Source: Spirochaetia bacterium (GTDB lineage: Bacteria; Spirochaetota; Spirochaetia; WTKD01; G963693115). Taken from it: 64,000 nt of DNA. The notes beneath the pieces are model-generated. The model searched no databases, was not told where the DNA came from, and saw only the letters and a list, made by a program, of their open reading frames with translations. A program made the position numbers and the translations under genes. The DNA is taken from contig CBDCGX010000052.1 of the NCBI GenBank assembly GCA_965216965.1, forward strand, positions 35,195 through 99,194, in the 5' to 3' direction. Of the stretch, positions 9,675 through 19,087 are shown piece by piece (within the stretch, counting starts at the first letter, position 1; every line of letters starts with the position of its first letter).

Positions 9675-11301
9675 ATGATTAATATGCTATCACACATTTA
9701 TATTATTCACTATCACTTCAAAAAAGGTGGTGTAACTGATGTTGTTTTTAGAGCTTTGTCTGCATTTGATAATGCCATCACAACATTTCCTCAGTTAAAA
9801 AAAATAACTTTTGTCTGTGGTTCACCTGAAAATATAGATATATTCCGCCATATGTCCCTACATCGTATCTCAATAAATTTTATCATTGATTCCTCCATTG
9901 GATACTCTGATATAACACATAAAAAACAACAATCTCATATACACGCCATTCTTAAAAAGATTACTCAAAAAAACTCTTTATGGTGGATCCATAATCATAA
10001 TTTAGGGAAAAATGCTCTTTTTACCAAAACACTTATGAAATATCTCCAATCAGAAAAACAATTTTGTTTTCTACACTTACATGATTTTCCCGAAAGTGCC
10101 CGCTATACTAATTTAGAAAAACTCAGAAACATTATGCTTCACTACGAAACCTACATGGGAGGAACCCATGCTCTTTTAGCAGTTATCAATAAAGAAGATA
10201 CTTTTATGCTAAAAAAAGCACACTACACGCCTGCATATATTCCAAATATCATTTCTTTTAATATACAAGCAAACAAAAACGGTAATTTTTCTAATACTGT
10301 AAAAAGAACCCTTTCAAAACAAGGGGAATATCGTTTACTTAAAAACAATTACACTCTTTTTACCTATCCTGTACGCTGCATTCGACGAAAAAAACATATT
10401 AGAAGCCGCTTTAATTAGTAAGATGTATTCTCATCATACCAATACTCCATGCATGCTGGCCATTACACTCCCTGGAACTTCTAACCAAGAACGTGCTTAT
10501 TCACAAATGGTTCAACAATTATTCGAAAAAAAGATTATTTCAGGTTTTTTTAATACGGCAGCACAAAGCACTTCTTTATCATTTGAGGATATATGTAAAG
10601 CAAGCGATATTATTATAAGCAGTTCTACTCAGGAAGGATTTGGTTTTACGTATATAGGAGCCGCATCGTGGAAAACACCTCTTCTCGCTCGTAACATTCC
10701 TGTAAAGAAAGACAACTTACAAGTATTAAAAGGATGGCCAATGCACTGGTATGAAAATATATACATACCCCTTTCTCTCTTTGAAAAACAAATGGTATAT
10801 ACAATAAAACAGTCTTATAAGGAGAAAATTAATGCACAGTCTCATTTATTGAGCTCTCAAATTATACATCATCTTTTAAACTCTGTAGACACTTTATTTA
10901 ATGGGGATGCTATTGATTTTTCATTTCTTTCTATTAATATGCAAATAATGATTATTGAAATGTGTAAACACTCTCCTACTACCCATGCCAATTCTGATGC
11001 ACTTTCTCGTATTACCCACGCCAATAAGAATCTTATGAACAAAATAGATATCTTGTTGCATCATCCAGACACACCAACAACCATACAAGACATACACAAC
11101 AATGTTGAAACATATCATAGCGAAAAAAGTTTTATACAATATTTTAAGAAAGCTCTAAACCGTCTTTATAAGAATAATATTCCTCTATCAAAACCCATAG
11201 CAAAAAAGTGTGCTAATTATGCCATCGCACGCTTTGCCCAACTTCCATATTTACGATTGTTATATGATCCATATATTGATGTTGGGCCTAAAAATAACTA
11301 A
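9675..11301 (+). pseudogene. GT-B (GT4-like) glycosyltransferase split into two ORFs by a +1 frameshift
   Basis: ORF 9675-10418 (HYHFKKGGVT, HNHNLGKN, HDFPE, YPVRCIRRK) joins ORF 10423-11301 (SSTQEGFGFTYI) when one A is removed from A7 at 10388-10394. Confidence 0.8.
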
Positions 11302-11318: not shown

Positions 11319-12491
11319 TTACTTGTATACTGTTATTGAATAATCTGCAGATGCTTTTCCTGCATAGAGTAAAATGATTTTATATTCTTCATCTTCTTGT
11401 GCATAAATTGGGATATCAACTGAATTTCCCTTTGTGAGCTTTTCTACATATAAAGAACTTCTGTTAGAATTAGCAAATATTACGTTTATATCTTCAGAAA
11501 AAGTTTCTGCAACAATAGTCCGCACCTCGCCCTTTGTAAGGGGAAGTGAATATTCTTTCATATATGTATCAAAAATCTTTGTATCTTGATTTGTAATTTT
11601 GTCGGTATAAGAAAATACCTTTTCATTATTACTTACTTGCACATCAAGGAAGAATTGCCCTGTCTTAGCCCCATTAAAAGAAGATGCCAAAATATAATAT
11701 GTATCATCACGTGGAATAAGTCCCGTTATCAAAGAGCTAGAACTTTCTCTAGAGTTTGTCCAATCATCAGACACAATTGATTTTCCATACCAATTAGAAA
11801 ATTCTAAGAACGTATCAAAATCACTTGAATTCATATATACATATATGCGTGTATCTGCTGTAAGTTTTATTGCATATTCTTTCATCACCCGTTCCATAAT
11901 TATTGAATCCATATTTAATTCTTCTTCAAGCAGGGAGGGGAGAGTCTCTATAGTTTGTGGTGGTGGTATTGTATATACTTCTAACGTATATGAATTGCTT
12001 CCATTCTTTTTCATTGAATTATTATGTGCGAGCGCAGTAATAATTGCTGTTGGTGCATCTCCTACGCGAGAAGTATTTTGTATGTGTTGGTTTTTCTGAT
12101 TTATATTATTTGCTCTTTGGGGAATACTAAACAACACTCCCGCATTTTCTCCAAGATAAAGATCTTTAAATACAAAACTATCTCCTACATCTATCCTTAT
12201 GATAGGATCAATTATATTCGATTTCATGAGTACACCATATCGCATACCGTAGGCTAAAGGGACCCTAAGTGTTATTCCCTTTTTTAGTTTTTTATCTCGT
12301 TCATAATAATCTTGTGTAATAATATCTTCTATATTAAACAACAACACTTGTTCTTTTATTGTAGATTCTGCTTGTTGTATCAAAGGTGTGCTTTTTTCTG
12401 TTTGCTGAGAAAATACTATAGGAATACTAATGCACGTATAGATAAAGATCACATATATTTTTTGTATAGTTCTTTTCATCGTTTTACTCAT
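11319..12491 (-). CDS. Exported hypothetical protein with PPC-like beta-sandwich repeats
   Basis: N-terminal signal-like segment; SSDFDTFLEF...SDD...SSLITGLIPRDDTYYILASSF...TGQFFLDV resembles the pre-peptidase C-terminal domain. Confidence 0.55.
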   Translation of the reverse strand: MSKTMKRTIQKIYVIFIYTCISIPIVFSQQTEKSTPLIQQAESTIKEQVLLFNIEDIITQDYYERDKKLKKGITLRVPLAYGMRYGVLMKSNIIDPIIRIDVGDSFVFKDLYLGENAGVLFSIPQRANNINQKNQHIQNTSRVGDAPTAIITALAHNNSMKKNGSNSYTLEVYTIPPPQTIETLPSLLEEELNMDSIIMERVMKEYAIKLTADTRIYVYMNSSDFDTFLEFSNWYGKSIVSDDWTNSRESSSSLITGLIPRDDTYYILASSFNGAKTGQFFLDVQVSNNEKVFSYTDKITNQDTKIFDTYMKEYSLPLTKGEVRTIVAETFSEDINVIFANSNRSSLYVEKLTKGNSVDIPIYAQEDEEYKIILLYAGKASADYSITVYK

Positions 12492-12518
12492 AATTACTCT
12501 ATCTATTATAGCTTATTG

Positions 12519-13607
12519 CTACTTACCTCCAAGCCCTATTAATACTTTTTTTATTGATTCAATCGGAACAGTTCTTAGAAAAGTAGTTTCTATATCTTTC
12601 TGAATAACAAATTCCACCTCTTTTTCTTTCCTTTTTTTATCATTTTGCATATAACAGCATAATCTATCAACAGAGATTCCATTATAATGAGATGGGCATT
12701 CTAAACTATCAAGAATGCTTATTATTCTTTCTGCATAGTTTATATTTGTATAGCCTAATTCTACTCCCAATAATAATGCTGTGCGTATACCAAGTGCTAC
12801 CGCTTCGCCATGGGTCCAGTATTTTTCATTTTTCTTGCTATGGTTTTTATATAAATAATTATTTGTTGCCTCAAGAGCATGGGCAAAAGTATGTCCTAAA
12901 TTTAGAATAGCTCGTTCCCCAGATTCCATAAAATCAGCGTGTACAATATCTACTTTTACAGCGATTGCATCTTGTATAATCTTTTCCCATACATTACTAT
13001 TATTTTCTGCATACGGGTTTTTAATATCAGAAATAGCCTGCTCAATAAACGCAACAAGATGTTTGTTCTTTAACATTCCCGCTTTAAGTGCCTCTATAAG
13101 CCCACACCGTAACTCATGCCACGAAAGCGTAGTTAAAAACTCTTCACAAATTATAATGGAGTTAGCAAGATAAAATGTCCCTACCATATTTTTAAGCCCA
13201 TTATAATTAGTGGCTGTTTTCCCCCCTATTGACGCATCTACCATAGATAACAATGTGGTGGGAATTAGCACGCATTGTATTCCTCTTAAATAGACCGATG
13301 CTACAAAGCTCACTACATCACAAAGGGCACCTCCTCCTATAGCGACAATACTACTGTCTCGAGCAAGAGTTTTTCTAAAACAAGCCTTAAGTATACTGTC
13401 AAATATAAATGAAGTTTTATTGACTTCTCCGCCCGGAACAATAAGATAATCATATCCTTTAAGATCTATTATTCCATTGTTAAAAACTGCCGCATCTACA
13501 ACTATAAAAGCAGATAAATCAATACATTCCATACATTCTTGTACACTCTGTCTCTGTGTTATAACACACGATTGTATACCTACCGTGAGAGTATGAAGTG
13601 TCTTCAT
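12519..13607 (-). CDS. aroB: 3-dehydroquinate synthase
   Basis: IGGGALCD, PTTLLSMVDASIGGKT, KNMVGTF, LNLGHTFAHALE, HGEAVA. Confidence 0.93.
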   Translation of the reverse strand: MKTLHTLTVGIQSCVITQRQSVQECMECIDLSAFIVVDAAVFNNGIIDLKGYDYLIVPGGEVNKTSFIFDSILKACFRKTLARDSSIVAIGGGALCDVVSFVASVYLRGIQCVLIPTTLLSMVDASIGGKTATNYNGLKNMVGTFYLANSIIICEEFLTTLSWHELRCGLIEALKAGMLKNKHLVAFIEQAISDIKNPYAENNSNVWEKIIQDAIAVKVDIVHADFMESGERAILNLGHTFAHALEATNNYLYKNHSKKNEKYWTHGEAVALGIRTALLLGVELGYTNINYAERIISILDSLECPSHYNGISVDRLCCYMQNDKKRKEKEVEFVIQKDIETTFLRTVPIESIKKVLIGLGGK

Positions 13608-13611
13608 TAAA

Positions 13612-15246
13612 TTACACCTGTTGTTGAGATACTGTAAACAGTTTTGTATCTCCTATACCTTTAATATTGGCATTACCTATAACAGAAATATTAAATATAC
13701 CTTGTACTACTTGAGCAATCTTCTCACTCACCACAATTGGCGGTCGTGGTGGACGTGCAATGTCACATAATCGCGATGCTATATTTACTGCAGAACCTAT
13801 GACAGTATATTCCAATCTCTCTTTGCTTCCTATATATCCTGCAACCACATTTCCATAATGAACTCCTATCCCATTATTTATTTCTTGGTATTTCCCTTCC
13901 TTTCCTATTTGTTCGTTCAGCATAGCTAATACTGCTCTCATTCCTAAAGCCGCCCTTACCGATTGTATACAAGAGTCTTTATCCCCAACCAAACCAAATA
14001 CCGCCATAATAGCGTCTCCAATAAATTTATCCACAAGTCCTCCTTCTTCTTGGATAACCATAACCATTTCAGAAAAATATCTATTGAGCATTGAAGTGAT
14101 TTCTTGTGGAGTCATAGTGGAAGATAGTCTTGTAAACCCTCTAATATCACACATGAGTATTGCAATGTTTCTTTCTTCTCCTTCCATGAGATCAGATTTT
14201 GTATTCATCTTATTAAATTCTCGTGTCATGCTTTTATCTGCAAAACGCCCATATGAGAGGCAAGAATATTGTCTGCCTTCTTCAGAACCTGTTGAACCCG
14301 CAACAACCCCAAACGAAAGACAACTATAACATTCTTCATTAATGTATTGTGCTATTTCTGGTGGATTTCCTAATTTCTGAAATACTTCTTGCATTTGTTT
14401 TTTCATCTTGTTAAGTTCTTGTATTACAGCATGAACACATGATGATATTTTCCCAAGCTCATCTAATCGCGTACTATCTATTTCTACATCAAGTTTTCCC
14501 TCTTTAAGAGCAGCAAGTGCTTTTATTATTATTCTCGCATTTTTGACAAAAGACAATCCAAACAATAATGTAATACTTAATCCTACAATTAAGAACACCA
14601 CTCCCATATACATTAATTCTTTGATAACAATGGTAGAAACCACTCCGTTATTAAGTGAAGCATGATAAACAACTAGCAGCATTGTTAATACTGAAATAGA
14701 AATAAATATTATCGTGCTTTCTAAAAACCGTCTTGTAAGACTTCCTAAAAACACTTTCCCATCTCTACTTTTAACAGGTAGTACTTCAAGCTTATGTTCA
14801 TATACTCCATATTCAAGCTGAGCTATAAGTCCGCCACCTATAATCCAATATTCTAATAGAGTTGAAAATATGTTATAAACAGAGAAATCATTTCTATACA
14901 AAGCATATTGTATTCCTATAGCAATTCCTCCTCCTAATATCCATGAAAATACAGATAATACATATGCTCTTCGTGCACTTGTTTTTTCTCCTTTACCAAG
15001 TAAAGGTAATAAAAAGAATAATTCTCTTATAAAGACTACTCCAATAATTGAAAATACCATATTGCGTAATTCTTCACTAAACGCAACATTCCCAATCCCT
15101 ATGATTTGACTATAAATAGTTAAGAACAACGCTGTAAGCACATTAATTGCATAAATAATAATTCTTGTGTTTCCACCTACTACTGTGCGAAAAAGCTTCT
15201 TATCGCTCCACATTATTTTATCTGACACAACTACATTTTGACCCAT
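13612..15246 (-). CDS. Membrane-bound class III adenylate cyclase (multi-TM, HAMP, catalytic domain)
   Basis: CDIRGFT, KFIGDAIMA (Lys specifies ATP), EYTVIGSAVNIASRL; HAMP-like DSTRLDELG. Confidence 0.9.
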   Translation of the reverse strand: MGQNVVVSDKIMWSDKKLFRTVVGGNTRIIIYAINVLTALFLTIYSQIIGIGNVAFSEELRNMVFSIIGVVFIRELFFLLPLLGKGEKTSARRAYVLSVFSWILGGGIAIGIQYALYRNDFSVYNIFSTLLEYWIIGGGLIAQLEYGVYEHKLEVLPVKSRDGKVFLGSLTRRFLESTIIFISISVLTMLLVVYHASLNNGVVSTIVIKELMYMGVVFLIVGLSITLLFGLSFVKNARIIIKALAALKEGKLDVEIDSTRLDELGKISSCVHAVIQELNKMKKQMQEVFQKLGNPPEIAQYINEECYSCLSFGVVAGSTGSEEGRQYSCLSYGRFADKSMTREFNKMNTKSDLMEGEERNIAILMCDIRGFTRLSSTMTPQEITSMLNRYFSEMVMVIQEEGGLVDKFIGDAIMAVFGLVGDKDSCIQSVRAALGMRAVLAMLNEQIGKEGKYQEINNGIGVHYGNVVAGYIGSKERLEYTVIGSAVNIASRLCDIARPPRPPIVVSEKIAQVVQGIFNISVIGNANIKGIGDTKLFTVSQQQV

Positions 15247-15247
15247 A

Positions 15248-16144
15248 TTATCCCCTCCCCTTCTCTAGTCTTTGAAATGCTGCTTGTATTTGTTGTTTAA
15301 TCCCATTAAATTTTTGTGCTACTTCGCCAATACATGCAGATATTTCTCCAAATTCATCTAATCGCGTGCTGTCTACTCTTACATCAAGATCACCTTCTTT
15401 AAGAGCAGTAAGCCCTTTTATTATTTTTTTCACATCTTTTATAAAAGAAAATCCAAATAATAATGAAATACCTAAACCTACAACTAAAAACGCTATCCCC
15501 ATATATACTAATTCTTTAATAACCGCTATAGGAATTACTCCATTGTTAAATAAATCATAGTGAATAACAACAAGCATCACCGTTGCTATGGGTATAAGAA
15601 TAAACAGCAGCGTACTTTCTAGGAATCGTCTTGCAAAGCTTTCCAAAAACATTCTTTCACTCGTGTCTTTAATGTGTAGCATATTAAGCTTGCGCTCATA
15701 GACCCCATATTCAAGCCGAGCTACAAAGCCACCACCTACAATACAATACCCTAAAAAAACTTTAAATACATTGTATGTAAGAAAATCATTTCCATAAAAA
15801 TAGTAATGCACTCCCACTGAAACTCCCCCTCCTAGAACCCATGAAAATATAGATATTATATATGCTCTTCGTGCACTTGTTTTACCCTTCTTACCAGAAG
15901 AGAAAAATAAAAACAATATTTCCCTTATAAGAATCATTCCAATAATTGAAAATATCATATTTCGTAATTCTTCATTAAATACAAAACCTTCAAATCCTGT
16001 TGTTCGACTATAAATGGTTAAAAATAATGCCGCCAATATATTAATTGCGTAAATGATAATTCTTGCTTTTCCACCCACTACTGTACAGAATTTTTTTTTG
16101 TTATTCCACATAGTTTTACCTGATAAAACTGTATTTTGATCCAT
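15248..16144 (-). CDS. Paralog of the cyclase TM+HAMP region lacking the catalytic domain
   Basis: Aligns end to end with the cyclase N-terminal half (TVVGG, TSARRAY, LEYGVYE, RRFLEST, STRLDE). Own SD (GGAG); stops 1 nt before the cyclase ATG. Confidence 0.85.
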   Translation of the reverse strand: MDQNTVLSGKTMWNNKKKFCTVVGGKARIIIYAINILAALFLTIYSRTTGFEGFVFNEELRNMIFSIIGMILIREILFLFFSSGKKGKTSARRAYIISIFSWVLGGGVSVGVHYYFYGNDFLTYNVFKVFLGYCIVGGGFVARLEYGVYERKLNMLHIKDTSERMFLESFARRFLESTLLFILIPIATVMLVVIHYDLFNNGVIPIAVIKELVYMGIAFLVVGLGISLLFGFSFIKDVKKIIKGLTALKEGDLDVRVDSTRLDEFGEISACIGEVAQKFNGIKQQIQAAFQRLEKGRG

Positions 16145-16233
16145 GTTGTCTCCTTAGTTCTTAGTTCTTATTAAAGCTAATACAATATAATAGTTTAAGT
16201 ATATCAAAATACTCTTTAAAAGATATTCTAATA

Positions 16234-17514
16234 TTACGGCGTAATTCTCATCCTATCTCGTGGAAACATTGACGCTAGCTTTACATTATCGCACCCAAGT
16301 ATTTTTTGAGTAAGTCGTTCAAGACCTATTGCCCATCCTCCATGAGGAGGACATCCATACTTAAATATAGAAAAATAGTCTTGCATCTTTTTAGAATCTA
16401 ATAGAAATCTTTTTGCATTCTCACACAACATTTTATAATCATGTATGCGCAAACCTCCTGTAGATATTTCCACACCACCAAAAATCAAGTCAAAGCCCTT
16501 GGTTTTTTGTCCATTAGGCATGGTATAAAATGGTCGCTTCCTACGTGGAAATTCTAATACAAAAACAGCTGGTACATTATAATTTTCTTCTGCCCACACA
16601 CACAGTTCTCTTTCTGCGTTAGGATCTATATCAAGTACTCGCACCTTACTTCTTTCTGATACTATTTTTTTTGCTTCATCATAAGATACGCGTGGTATTT
16701 TCTCTAGGGCATTGGGAAATGGTATCTGTGCTTTCCACAAAGCAATTTGTTCCTGACAATTACTATTAAGATGTTCGCTTGTTTCCTGTAAAAACTCTTG
16801 TTGGATATCCATAAGATCATGTTCATTTTCTATAAATGCCATTTCAATATCCAAAGAAACATATTCATTTATATGGCGATTTGTTTCGTGCTTTTCGGCT
16901 CTATATACATGGCCAACTTCAAACACCCTTTCTAGTCCCGACGCTATTCCTGCCTGTTTATAGAATTGAGGAGATTGTGCCAAATACACCTTAGTGTTAA
17001 AGTATGACACCTCAAAAAGCCCTGTTCCACCCTCTGTACCACTTCCTATAAGCTTACTTGTTTTTATTTCTGTAAAATCTCTCGCTCTAAGATAAGAGGA
17101 AAAACATCGTAATATTTCTGATTGTACCTCAAAAAGCGCTCTCATTTTTGGAATTCGTAATGAAAGCAATCGTTGTTCTAAAAGCGTTTCTATGCCAATA
17201 CTATTCATAGGTGCGTTTATAGAAAGCGGAAGGTCTTCTTGTGGTTCAGAAATGGTTTTTATAGTTTCTTTTTGGAGTTCTGCCCCGTAAGGAGCTTTCT
17301 CGCTTTTTACCACCATGCCAGATACTTCTATTATGCTTTCACCTTTAATTGCAATTTTTCCATTAGGAAATACTATTTGAGCAATGCCAGATCTATCTCT
17401 AAGTAAAACAAAAGAAACCCCGCCCAATTCCCTTATACGATGCACCCATCCACAAAGAGTAATAGATTGCCCCATATATTCTAAAATATTCTTAGCTAAA
17501 ATTCTTTTCTTCAT
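16234..17514 (-). CDS. aspS: Aspartyl-tRNA synthetase, short archaeal/non-discriminating type
   Basis: GWVHRIRELGG, GTEGG, YLAQSPQFYKQ, YRAEKH, GCPPHGG, FPRDRMRITP; 426 aa. Confidence 0.88.
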   Translation of the reverse strand: MKKRILAKNILEYMGQSITLCGWVHRIRELGGVSFVLLRDRSGIAQIVFPNGKIAIKGESIIEVSGMVVKSEKAPYGAELQKETIKTISEPQEDLPLSINAPMNSIGIETLLEQRLLSLRIPKMRALFEVQSEILRCFSSYLRARDFTEIKTSKLIGSGTEGGTGLFEVSYFNTKVYLAQSPQFYKQAGIASGLERVFEVGHVYRAEKHETNRHINEYVSLDIEMAFIENEHDLMDIQQEFLQETSEHLNSNCQEQIALWKAQIPFPNALEKIPRVSYDEAKKIVSERSKVRVLDIDPNAERELCVWAEENYNVPAVFVLEFPRRKRPFYTMPNGQKTKGFDLIFGGVEISTGGLRIHDYKMLCENAKRFLLDSKKMQDYFSIFKYGCPPHGGWAIGLERLTQKILGCDNVKLASMFPRDRMRITP

Positions 17515-17560
17515 ATCTGATTTATATTGTATAATATATGGTATATTTTCAATACAACAT

Positions 17561-19087
17561 ATGATATGTCTTTGTCTTACGAGTTCTTCTCTCTCAAAAA
17601 ATTATAAAACCATCTTACAATATAAAAAACATATAGACTGTGTAGAACTTCGCATTGATTTACTTTCTGCTTCTGAACAAAAGATCGACACTATTTGCAA
17701 ATGGGTTTCATCTCACATTACAATTCCTATTATTGCAACTATAAGAAAACCATACGATGGAGGAGCATGGTCTCAAAGCGAAGCAATCCGACAAAAACTC
17801 CTTAGTGATATTATTACAAGCTCCTTGTTTTCTTATGTAGATGTTGAAGGAAATCTTCCCTCGTTAATAAAAAAATTATACTCTCTCTCAACAAAGGGAA
17901 GCTCTCCCCCAAAAACAAAGATCATAATATCCCGCCATTGGTTCACTCCCATAAAAAACACCACATGGCTACAAACTGTACATAAGTATGCAAAACTATA
18001 CCCACATGCCATTATTAAAATTGCCTTAATGTGCAAAAGTACAACTCATATGTGTAATGCTTTAGAAGCATGTAATTCTTTATTAAAAGAAAAAAAAATC
18101 CATCCACACATAAAAACTCGTTTTGTCTTTGTGGCAATGGGAGAATATGGTAGACCACTTCGAATACTCGCAAAAAGAACTGGAACATTATGGACATATG
18201 CGTCAGATGAGCAAAGCCCTTTACTCGCCTTGGGTCATTTTGATCCTAAAACACTACATATTCTTTACAGATATAAAGAAATAACACAGAAAACACTTAT
18301 CTTTGCTATTGTAGGAAACCCCGTATCTCATTCTCAATCTCCACTATTTCACAATAAAGAGTTTATTAAAAAAAAGCAGAATGCTATATATATTCCCTTG
18401 CCTATTGATAAGTGTTCTGAACTACTACGAGCAATACGCCTACTCTCATTGCGTGGAATATCAGTCACCATCCCACACAAAAAATCTGTTATTCCATTTC
18501 TTCATTGGAAAGATAAAAATGTGCTTACATGTGCATCATGTAACACCATTATACACTACCGTAAAAAACTCTATGGATATAATACTGATATAAAAGGATT
18601 TCTAACTCCTCTTAAAAAACGAATACAAAAAAATAGGCTAAAAGGAATAAAATGTACTATTATTGGATGTGGTGGTACTGCACAAGCGATTTCTCATGCT
18701 CTATTACAAGAAGGAATACACTTACTCATTACAAATAGGACTCTTGCTAAAGCAGAAAAATTAGTAGCTACCTTAAAACTTCTTTATAAAGACAGAAAAA
18801 TTTCTTCTGCTTCATTATATGATTACAGTGCTATACAAAAATATGATACTATTCTCATACAAACAAGTAGCGTAGGCATGAACAATGCCACCTCTTCTCC
18901 CCTTCCCTCTTATCCATTTTGTGGGAAAGAGCTTGTATATGATGTTATATATACTCCACCTATTACAAGATTTCTAAGCGATGCACAAAACGCGGGGTGC
19001 ACAATAATATCTGGAAAAGAAATGTTTAAAGAGCAAGCAAAATATCAATCCCAACTATTTTTCCAAAGCATTCACAAAACCAATTAG
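17561..19087 (+). CDS. aroDE: Bifunctional type I 3-dehydroquinate dehydratase / shikimate dehydrogenase
   Basis: ELRIDLL, IIATIR, IKIA, AMGEYG followed by GNPVSHSQSP, SVTIPHK, GYNTD, DVIYTP. Start moved to ATG 17561 to avoid overlap with aspS. Confidence 0.85.
   Translation: MICLCLTSSSLSKNYKTILQYKKHIDCVELRIDLLSASEQKIDTICKWVSSHITIPIIATIRKPYDGGAWSQSEAIRQKLLSDIITSSLFSYVDVEGNLPSLIKKLYSLSTKGSSPPKTKIIISRHWFTPIKNTTWLQTVHKYAKLYPHAIIKIALMCKSTTHMCNALEACNSLLKEKKIHPHIKTRFVFVAMGEYGRPLRILAKRTGTLWTYASDEQSPLLALGHFDPKTLHILYRYKEITQKTLIFAIVGNPVSHSQSPLFHNKEFIKKKQNAIYIPLPIDKCSELLRAIRLLSLRGISVTIPHKKSVIPFLHWKDKNVLTCASCNTIIHYRKKLYGYNTDIKGFLTPLKKRIQKNRLKGIKCTIIGCGGTAQAISHALLQEGIHLLITNRTLAKAEKLVATLKLLYKDRKISSASLYDYSAIQKYDTILIQTSSVGMNNATSSPLPSYPFCGKELVYDVIYTPPITRFLSDAQNAGCTIISGKEMFKEQAKYQSQLFFQSIHKTN

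Follow-up and report, generated by a model that had tools for sequence, protein, structure and literature searches.

A selection-maintained, sensor-only twin of a MASE10-like HAMP adenylate cyclase in an uncultured spirochaete

In a stretch of 64,000 nucleotides from the metagenome-assembled genome (MAG) of an uncultured Spirochaetia bacterium (assembly GCA_965216965.1, contig CBDCGX010000052.1, positions 35,195 to 99,194 of the forward strand; referred to here as the window, with position 1 as its first letter), what appears to be an ordinary MASE10-like HAMP adenylate cyclase was found directly downstream of an intact copy of its own sensor half that contains no catalytic domain. Comparison of the two copies with each other and with related genes supports the view that this sensor-only copy, called the twin in the following, is an old and intact gene on which purifying selection has acted as strongly as on the sensor half of the cyclase. 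The reading favored here is that the twin co-assembles with the cyclase and attenuates or retunes its output of cyclic AMP (cAMP), a proposal to which a probability of roughly 45% was assigned, and heterodimerization appears to be the mechanistically most likely way in which the pair would work.

The two genes adjoin on the minus strand, as do all features placed within them below. The twin (15248-16144, 298 amino acids) encodes six MASE10-like membrane helices and a HAMP domain, and the cyclase (13612-15246, 544 amino acids) encodes six membrane helices, a HAMP domain, a helical linker and a class IIIb catalytic domain. When the two proteins were compared by BLASTP, 172 of 293 residues were identical (59%, with one 1-residue gap and an E value of 2e-115), the alignment pairing residues 1-293 of the twin with residues 1-292 of the cyclase and extending to the end of the post-HAMP helix. 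As the DNA of the copies is 72% identical and their longest exact match is 24 nt, they are evidently well diverged and do not constitute an assembly repeat. The twin has a Shine-Dalgarno (SD) sequence of its own (AAGGAG, 16150-16155, 6 nt 5' of its ATG) and ends in the stop codon TAA (15248-15250), the junction between the two genes reading GAG AAG GGG AGG GGA TAA T ATG; its tail, EKGRG (15251-15265), contains the G-rich SD of the cyclase (15251-15262). The original prediction, which had been made from the letters of the window, had described tandem genes with well-diverged transmembrane and HAMP regions that align end to end, an intact upstream copy that has its own SD and ends exactly after the post-HAMP helix, and a TAA-T-ATG coupling with a G-rich SD in the last codons of the twin, and this description was correct in each detail checked. 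Fusion of the twin with the cyclase through a programmed frameshift was also considered and dropped, as the two lie in different frames, no slippery motif is present and the cyclase starts at a conserved site of its own, with a conserved N-terminus.

The twin is no cyclase. The Pfam family of the catalytic domain (Guanylate_cyc, PF00211) gave no match to it even at E values up to 10, and its open reading frame (ORF) stops 5 codons past the post-HAMP helix, with the cyclase gene starting at the next base but one. The point at which the twin ends (...AFQRL-EKGRG and stop) is also the point at which the cyclase and all orthologues enter a conserved pre-catalytic helix motif, of which the twin has only the first four residues (FQRL). 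The part that it does encode consists of a six-helix membrane sensor module (residues ~26-236, 15437-16069), placed by alignment to the helices of a structural model of the cyclase and retaining the family-invariant residues W102, G106, G137 and E211, and of a HAMP domain with its post-HAMP helix (residues ~237-293, 15266-15436), assigned through a sub-threshold Pfam match, NCBIfam matches and alignment with orthologues. The Pfam HAMP model (PF00672) matched residues 235-269 of the twin below threshold (20.4 bits, with a cut-off of 25) and did not match the cyclase, and the NCBIfam matches were to the TM2-HAMP segments of AtoS, BarA and BaeS. The HAMP of both proteins aligns column for column with those of orthologues that pass the Pfam model at 27-36 bits; G251, R261 and the DEFG motif of the twin line up with the orthologues, and G250, R260 and D262-E263-x-G265 are kept in both copies. 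Similarly, the Pfam MASE10 model (PF20970) yielded no match for the twin or the cyclase at E values up to 10, nor in a six-frame scan of the genome. Both proteins are homologous by BLAST (E values of 1e-57 to 1e-140) to orthologues that pass MASE10 at 39-48 bits, and their anchor appears to be of a MASE10-like, diverged kind. The VCPF loop motif that follows helix 1, which is 88-97% conserved in 33 orthologues, has been lost from both copies at residues ~49-50 (in the region of 15095-15100 in the cyclase and 15993-15998 in the twin).

In the cyclase, PF00211 matched residues 358-539 (13630-14175) at 88.4 bits, well above its cut-off of 21.9, and this match was confined to the long copy. The catalytic domain is preceded by the HAMP domain (residues ~236-292, 14371-14541), located by alignment with orthologues whose HAMP passes Pfam and by model helices at residues 205-248 and 263-291, and by the pre-catalytic helix motif FQKLGNPPEIAQYINEEC (residues 289-306, 14329-14382). 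This motif, which resembles a cyclase transducer, was aligned with FGRFVNPEIAQEFIEKY of the orthologues and contains FQKLGNPPEIA where they have FGRFVNPEIA. An AlphaFold2 (AF2) model with a mean predicted local distance difference test score (pLDDT) of 81 consisted of six membrane helices (residues 26-49, 56-79, 90-116, 123-155, 170-198 and from 205 onwards), two HAMP helices, a further helix at residues 295-315, assigned to the pre-catalytic motif, and the catalytic domain from residue 357. As the model is of the cyclase monomer, it confirms the architecture and says nothing on the choice of dimer partner. Residues D367, D411, K407, T481, N488 and R492 sit in near-invariant columns of the family alignments, and we take them to be the two metal-binding aspartates, the substrate-binding lysine and threonine of class IIIb, and the transition-state asparagine and arginine, a combination established for homodimeric adenylate cyclases of class IIIb. 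Judged by these positions, the cyclase appears to be a catalytically complete, homodimer-type class IIIb adenylate cyclase. The best PDB matches of its catalytic domain were the guanylate cyclase Cya2 (2w01, 5.8e-27, the best of all) and CyaC (1wc0, 1.2e-25), and K407 and T481 occupy the positions at which Cya2 has E and G. Its nearest proteins are enzymes of 493-511 amino acids that are 40-41% identical to it and in which Pfam recognizes MASE10, HAMP and Guanylate_cyc.

The twin is the product of a partial tandem duplication of the cyclase that is specific to this lineage. In two genomes of the same genus (G001 and G002) and one of the same family (G004), a single cyclase gene of 493-511 amino acids occurs in the same gene order (aroDE, aspS, cyclase and aroB in G004; cyclase, aroB and the following genes in G001 and G002), and the twin is 59% identical to the adjacent cyclase, compared with 35-38% to any orthologue. 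As the relatives are single-copy at this place and the twin is closest to its neighbor, it arose within the lineage; no further copy of it was found in its own genome. Homology between the copies ends at ...AFQRL, after which 19 bases (GAGAAGGGGAGGGGATAAT) lead to the ATG of the cyclase, and 7 of the 10 bases that immediately precede the start codon are the same in cyclase and twin (AGGGGATAAT and AGGAGACAAC, respectively). The duplication would accordingly have taken in everything between a point ~15-20 nt 5' of the start codon and codon ~293. The last five codons of the twin and its stop would then probably be the translated former 5' leader of the cyclase, which would explain why its frame stops neatly behind the post-HAMP helix and why its final codons contain an SD. 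The observed structure could equally have been produced by duplication of the whole gene and a subsequent deletion. Loss of VCPF and 12 replacements at consensus positions are common to both copies, indicating that the sensor had already been altered before the duplication. Gene conversion was examined as a source of the similarity and rejected, as no long identical tract is present and the synonymous divergence (dS) is 0.46-1.3 in all segments. Two other class III cyclases occur in the genome (G000:C9:42044-43417 and G000:C52:100877-101437, the latter ~1.7 kb past the end of the window), one of the canonical MASE10 type in an open frame of 514 amino acids and one in a frame of 760 amino acids; with the twin as the query neither of them was detectable, as both are too distant.

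The ratio of nonsynonymous to synonymous substitution rates (dN/dS) between the copies, which the original prediction had put forward as a check, did not lie near 1 but ranged from 0.17 to 0.38. It was 0.36-0.38 by the Nei-Gojobori method (NG86; bootstrap 2.5-97.5% range 0.28-0.57, maximum 0.65) and 0.17 by maximum likelihood, it was below 1 in each segment, and it was 0.18 over the N-terminal residues 1-26, where both starts align from residue 1. If one copy had been neutral throughout, the pairwise value would have been forced to at least 0.5. Amino-acid changes were polarized with seven outgroups, which are saturated at synonymous sites and too distant for branch-specific codon models, and numbered 20-26 on the twin and 22-33 on the cyclase; with a consensus outgroup, 21 were assigned to the twin and 29 to the cyclase, and the hypothesis that the twin evolves even twofold faster than the cyclase was rejected (P = 2e-4). 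Of 56 consensus positions in the sensor and HAMP, defined as columns at least 80% conserved among 33 orthologues, 31 are kept in the twin and 30 in the cyclase, and W102, G106, G137, the glutamate of helix 6 and the G, R and DExG residues of HAMP are retained in both. The pairwise dS of 0.7-1.7 shows that the pair is old and has long been retained within its lineage.

These values also bear on the idea that the twin is a functionless relic of duplication whose frame has stayed open only because translation of the cyclase is coupled to it (through polarity or coupling), or by chance. Openness alone would not conserve amino acids, yet the counts of consensus positions and of polarized changes are those just given for the two copies; had one copy been neutral, the pairwise dN/dS could not lie below 0.5, and an SD of its own is available to the cyclase, even though the tight coupling of the two genes is what such a relic would lead one to expect. 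Furthermore, when neutral evolution was simulated at 33% G+C, all 293 codons stayed open in 0.02% of runs with half of the divergence placed on the twin and in 0.9% with a quarter of it (P between 0.0002 and 0.009). The relic explanation does gain from the occurrence of the pair in one assembly only and from the fact that 0.17-0.38 is well above the dN/dS of 0.08 obtained for the same module between the single-copy orthologues of G001 and G002; taken together, these points leave it improbable. Relative to this single-copy baseline, replacement sites have changed 2-5 times as fast in both window copies, and symmetrically so, an acceleration that fits a mutual readjustment of the two proteins after duplication.

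Active sites of class III cyclases form only between two catalytic domains. Dimerization of the catalytic domains is a prerequisite for cyclase function, and a helical domain brings both of them into the active dimer (PMC5699072). The twin would be translated from the same mRNA as the cyclase and adjacent to it, in keeping with the TAA-T-ATG coupling of the two genes and with the absence of a terminator-like site among aspS, twin, cyclase and aroB; a promoter scan was uninformative, its promoter-like matches occurring at the level of shuffled sequence. At its birth the twin would have been identical to the dimerizing modules of the cyclase and so must have co-assembled with it. Today it shares 59% of its residues with the cyclase and its HAMP-core changes are conservative, and through the shared dimerizing modules, that is, the membrane helices and the HAMP four-helix bundle, it is predicted to co-assemble still. 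The resulting heterodimer would have a single catalytic domain and a single pre-catalytic helix; because active sites need two catalytic domains, it should be inactive and make no cAMP. In such a scheme the twin would serve as a stoichiometric attenuator or threshold-setter that lowers, and possibly sharpens, the cAMP response, and stoichiometric sequestration can indeed yield thresholds and ultrasensitivity (PMC2694680). With a sensor that has diverged by 41% from that of the cyclase, the twin might also act as a second-input subunit. Two properties expected of a dominant-negative subunit were found in the twin, namely the possession of shared dimerization modules without the active domain (59% identity across the membrane and HAMP region and no catalytic domain) and maintenance by selection rather than decay (dN/dS of 0.17-0.38, symmetric rates and an open frame).

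The same evidence for selection applies equally to a twin that is functional but independent of the cyclase dimer, whether as homodimers of its own, as a stand-alone sensor, as a ligand sink or decoy, or as the partner of another protein. The HAMP core of the twin includes residues bulkier than the consensus of the family, F265 and F279, at positions where 29 of 33 and 33 of 33 orthologues, respectively, have L, which could mark a separate packing specificity, and the rapid divergence of both copies is as expected if they are escaping each other. However, a HAMP domain without an output domain has nothing to signal to, and the translational coupling and adjacency of the two genes favor co-assembly. 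The cluster moreover offers no other candidate for a partner gene, its neighbors being aspS and aroB, and stand-alone proteins of this kind were not seen in 401 genomes of the class or among 1.84 billion representative proteins. An independent role was judged unlikely.

Searches of public data placed the pair in this assembly only. With the twin as the query, only the twin itself was found in 5.8 billion clustered proteins, and among the 54 matches obtained from the 1.84 billion representatives the only close one was the neighboring cyclase. The three short matches among these representatives whose sequences were inspected were contig-end fragments or a frameshifted cyclase. No other instance of the pair was found in 60 relatives, no paralogous ORF was found beside the cyclase in 80 related cyclase loci compared ORF by ORF in an all-against-all manner, and no twin was present on the contigs of the closest Logan orthologue, which is metagenomic. 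In the 401 genomes of the class, MASE10 matches lay in frames of 484-553 amino acids including the cyclase, with two exceptions, one of them a sub-cut-off fragment of 48 amino acids with internal stops and the other a split gene (in G261). The original prediction had proposed a search for the same pair in other genomes and had itself counted uniqueness to this assembly against its case, and it was this outcome that was obtained. An origin of the pair in the assembly or binning of the MAG, which is 88% complete and in 58 contigs, was also considered. The copies are only 72% identical in DNA and share no exact match above 24 nt, which rules out their having been confused or doubled by an assembler; both copies have the G+C content of the genome (~32%), the flanks are single-copy and syntenic with those of relatives, and the closest relative of the twin is its neighbor and no gene of another organism. 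An artefact of this sort is thus barely credible.

Several points nevertheless weigh against co-assembly and attenuation as the function of the twin. The pair is a singleton in the collections searched, and conservation across species cannot support the claim; the genome, moreover, is a MAG of 88% completeness. Expression of the twin and its physical interaction with the cyclase are predictions from sequence. Divergence by 41% could have abolished cross-dimerization, as an escape from paralogue interference, and the acceleration of both copies could mean a genome-wide relaxation of constraint in what is a small genome (1.69 Mb, 33% GC). Finally, a poison subunit made constitutively from the same mRNA would have no obvious benefit unless the choice of partner or the stability of the subunits were regulated.

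The cyclase itself differs from its relatives by a lineage-specific insert of ~46 amino acids (residues ~307-352, 14191-14328), located exactly between the conserved pre-catalytic helix motif and the first strand of the catalytic domain and missing from all orthologues in a 12-sequence alignment. It has three cysteines and an internal repeat (YSCLSFG / YSCLSYG, 15 of 21 nt), and no source for it was found elsewhere in the genome. The insert is probably flexible, the AF2 model having a pLDDT below 50 for residues 305-352, and as the spacing from the pre-catalytic helix to the catalytic domain is constant across the aligned orthologues, it probably changes how HAMP is coupled to the catalytic domain. 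The coincidence of two lineage-specific novelties in one gene pair, the twin and this probably flexible insert, suggested a higher-order receptor, in which twin-cyclase heterodimers would sense two membrane or ligand inputs and the insert would let the catalytic domains of two heterodimers pair in trans. The twin would in that case be an obligatory second-input subunit, and cAMP would be made only when two-input heterodimers cluster. This arrangement is purely inferential, and given that the spacing is normally fixed in the family the insert may merely loosen regulation; both the receptor and the obligatory role of the twin within it are accordingly considered very doubtful. If it were true, a clustered two-input receptor would correspond, in bacteria and without covalent linkage, to the asymmetric 12-helix cyclases of animals and would represent an early evolutionary stage.

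Co-assembly with attenuation, the reading favored here, can be set against several known systems. The long gene is an ordinary member of the six-helix class III cyclases with or without HAMP (the Mycobacterium tuberculosis Rv3645/Rv1319c type, and Rv1625c/Cya, PDB 5o5k and 7yz9) and of the MASE10-HAMP-cyclase family (PF20970, PF00672 and PF00211), from which it differs in its unique ~46-amino-acid insert and in the loss of the VCPF loop motif. The six-helix membrane anchors of such enzymes have been argued to act as receptors (PMC4821796). No sensor-only partner gene has been described for any of these families, and no report of a bacterial class III cyclase with a sensor-only partner was found in the literature. 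The original prediction had spoken of an undescribed regulatory design; this holds insofar as such a pair is undescribed in bacterial class III cyclases, but the underlying principle, in which a truncated or non-catalytic paralogue poisons a dimeric signaling enzyme, is known elsewhere. In the RetS-GacS system of Pseudomonas aeruginosa, a related signaling protein has been shown experimentally to inhibit a homodimeric enzyme by replacing a protomer at the dimerization interface (PMC8498467), and displacement of a protomer is the mechanism proposed for the twin; RetS, however, is a full-length hybrid kinase that is encoded elsewhere and belongs to another enzyme family, whereas the twin is a truncated tandem copy whose interaction with the cyclase is predicted. 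Dominant-negative truncated isoforms are also known among the splice variants of G-protein-coupled receptors (PMC3477067). Heteromers and interference between paralogues (PMC9548406, PMC11066126 and bioRxiv 10.1101/2025.06.13.659495) provide a further likeness, in that the duplicate of a homodimer co-assembles by default and a copy without the active part titrates the original and can set a threshold, but the examples are mostly eukaryotic or synthetic and none is a bacterial cyclase.

Mammalian membrane adenylate cyclases (TM1-C1-TM2-C2 pseudo-heterodimers such as AC8, 8buz, and AC5, 8sl3) resemble the pair in having two diverged, duplicated six-helix modules, but both of their halves are catalytic and fused in one chain, while here the extra half is separate and without a catalytic domain. 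The split cyclase of G261 (L015 4655-5647 and 5644-6279) likewise places a MASE10-HAMP polypeptide without a catalytic domain beside cyclase sequence. In that genome, however, one gene has been cut into parts of 330 and 211 amino acids that overlap by 4 nt, with no second sensor module and no twin, which is probably the result of a frameshift or sequencing error and possibly a naturally split cyclase. Debate continues over the way in which membrane anchors control the activity of class III cyclases, which are obligate dimers. If the twin acts as proposed, bacteria would be able to tune a cyclase by subunit poisoning or by mixed-sensor dimers, and the pair would be a simple natural tool for identifying the segments of anchor and HAMP responsible for dimerization and signaling. 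A partial duplication of a homodimeric enzyme that has been retained, and not purged, also bears on paralogue interference, although the weight of the case is limited, being a single instance in one uncultured spirochaete MAG.

The pair is embedded in a housekeeping cluster (11319-19087) that comprises aroDE on the plus strand and aspS, the twin, the cyclase, aroB and an unknown protein of 390 amino acids on the minus strand, with gaps of 4-89 nt. A class II aminoacyl-tRNA synthetase gene (aspS-like, 16234-17514, minus strand, Pfam tRNA-synt_2) lies 89 nt upstream of the twin and is also a neighbor of the single-copy cyclase in G004, and the 3-dehydroquinate synthase gene (aroB, 12519-13607, minus strand, Pfam DHQ_synthase), which begins 4 nt after the cyclase stop, is a conserved neighbor in G001, G002 and G004. 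The longest ORFs of aspS (minus strand) and aroDE (plus strand) overlap head to head by 131 nt (17384-17514), and the true start of aroDE is probably a later methionine. On the plus strand, at 9675-11301, two adjacent ORFs of 247 and 292 amino acids match the halves of what is a single ORF of 535-538 amino acids in G001 and G002, so that this gene is split here.

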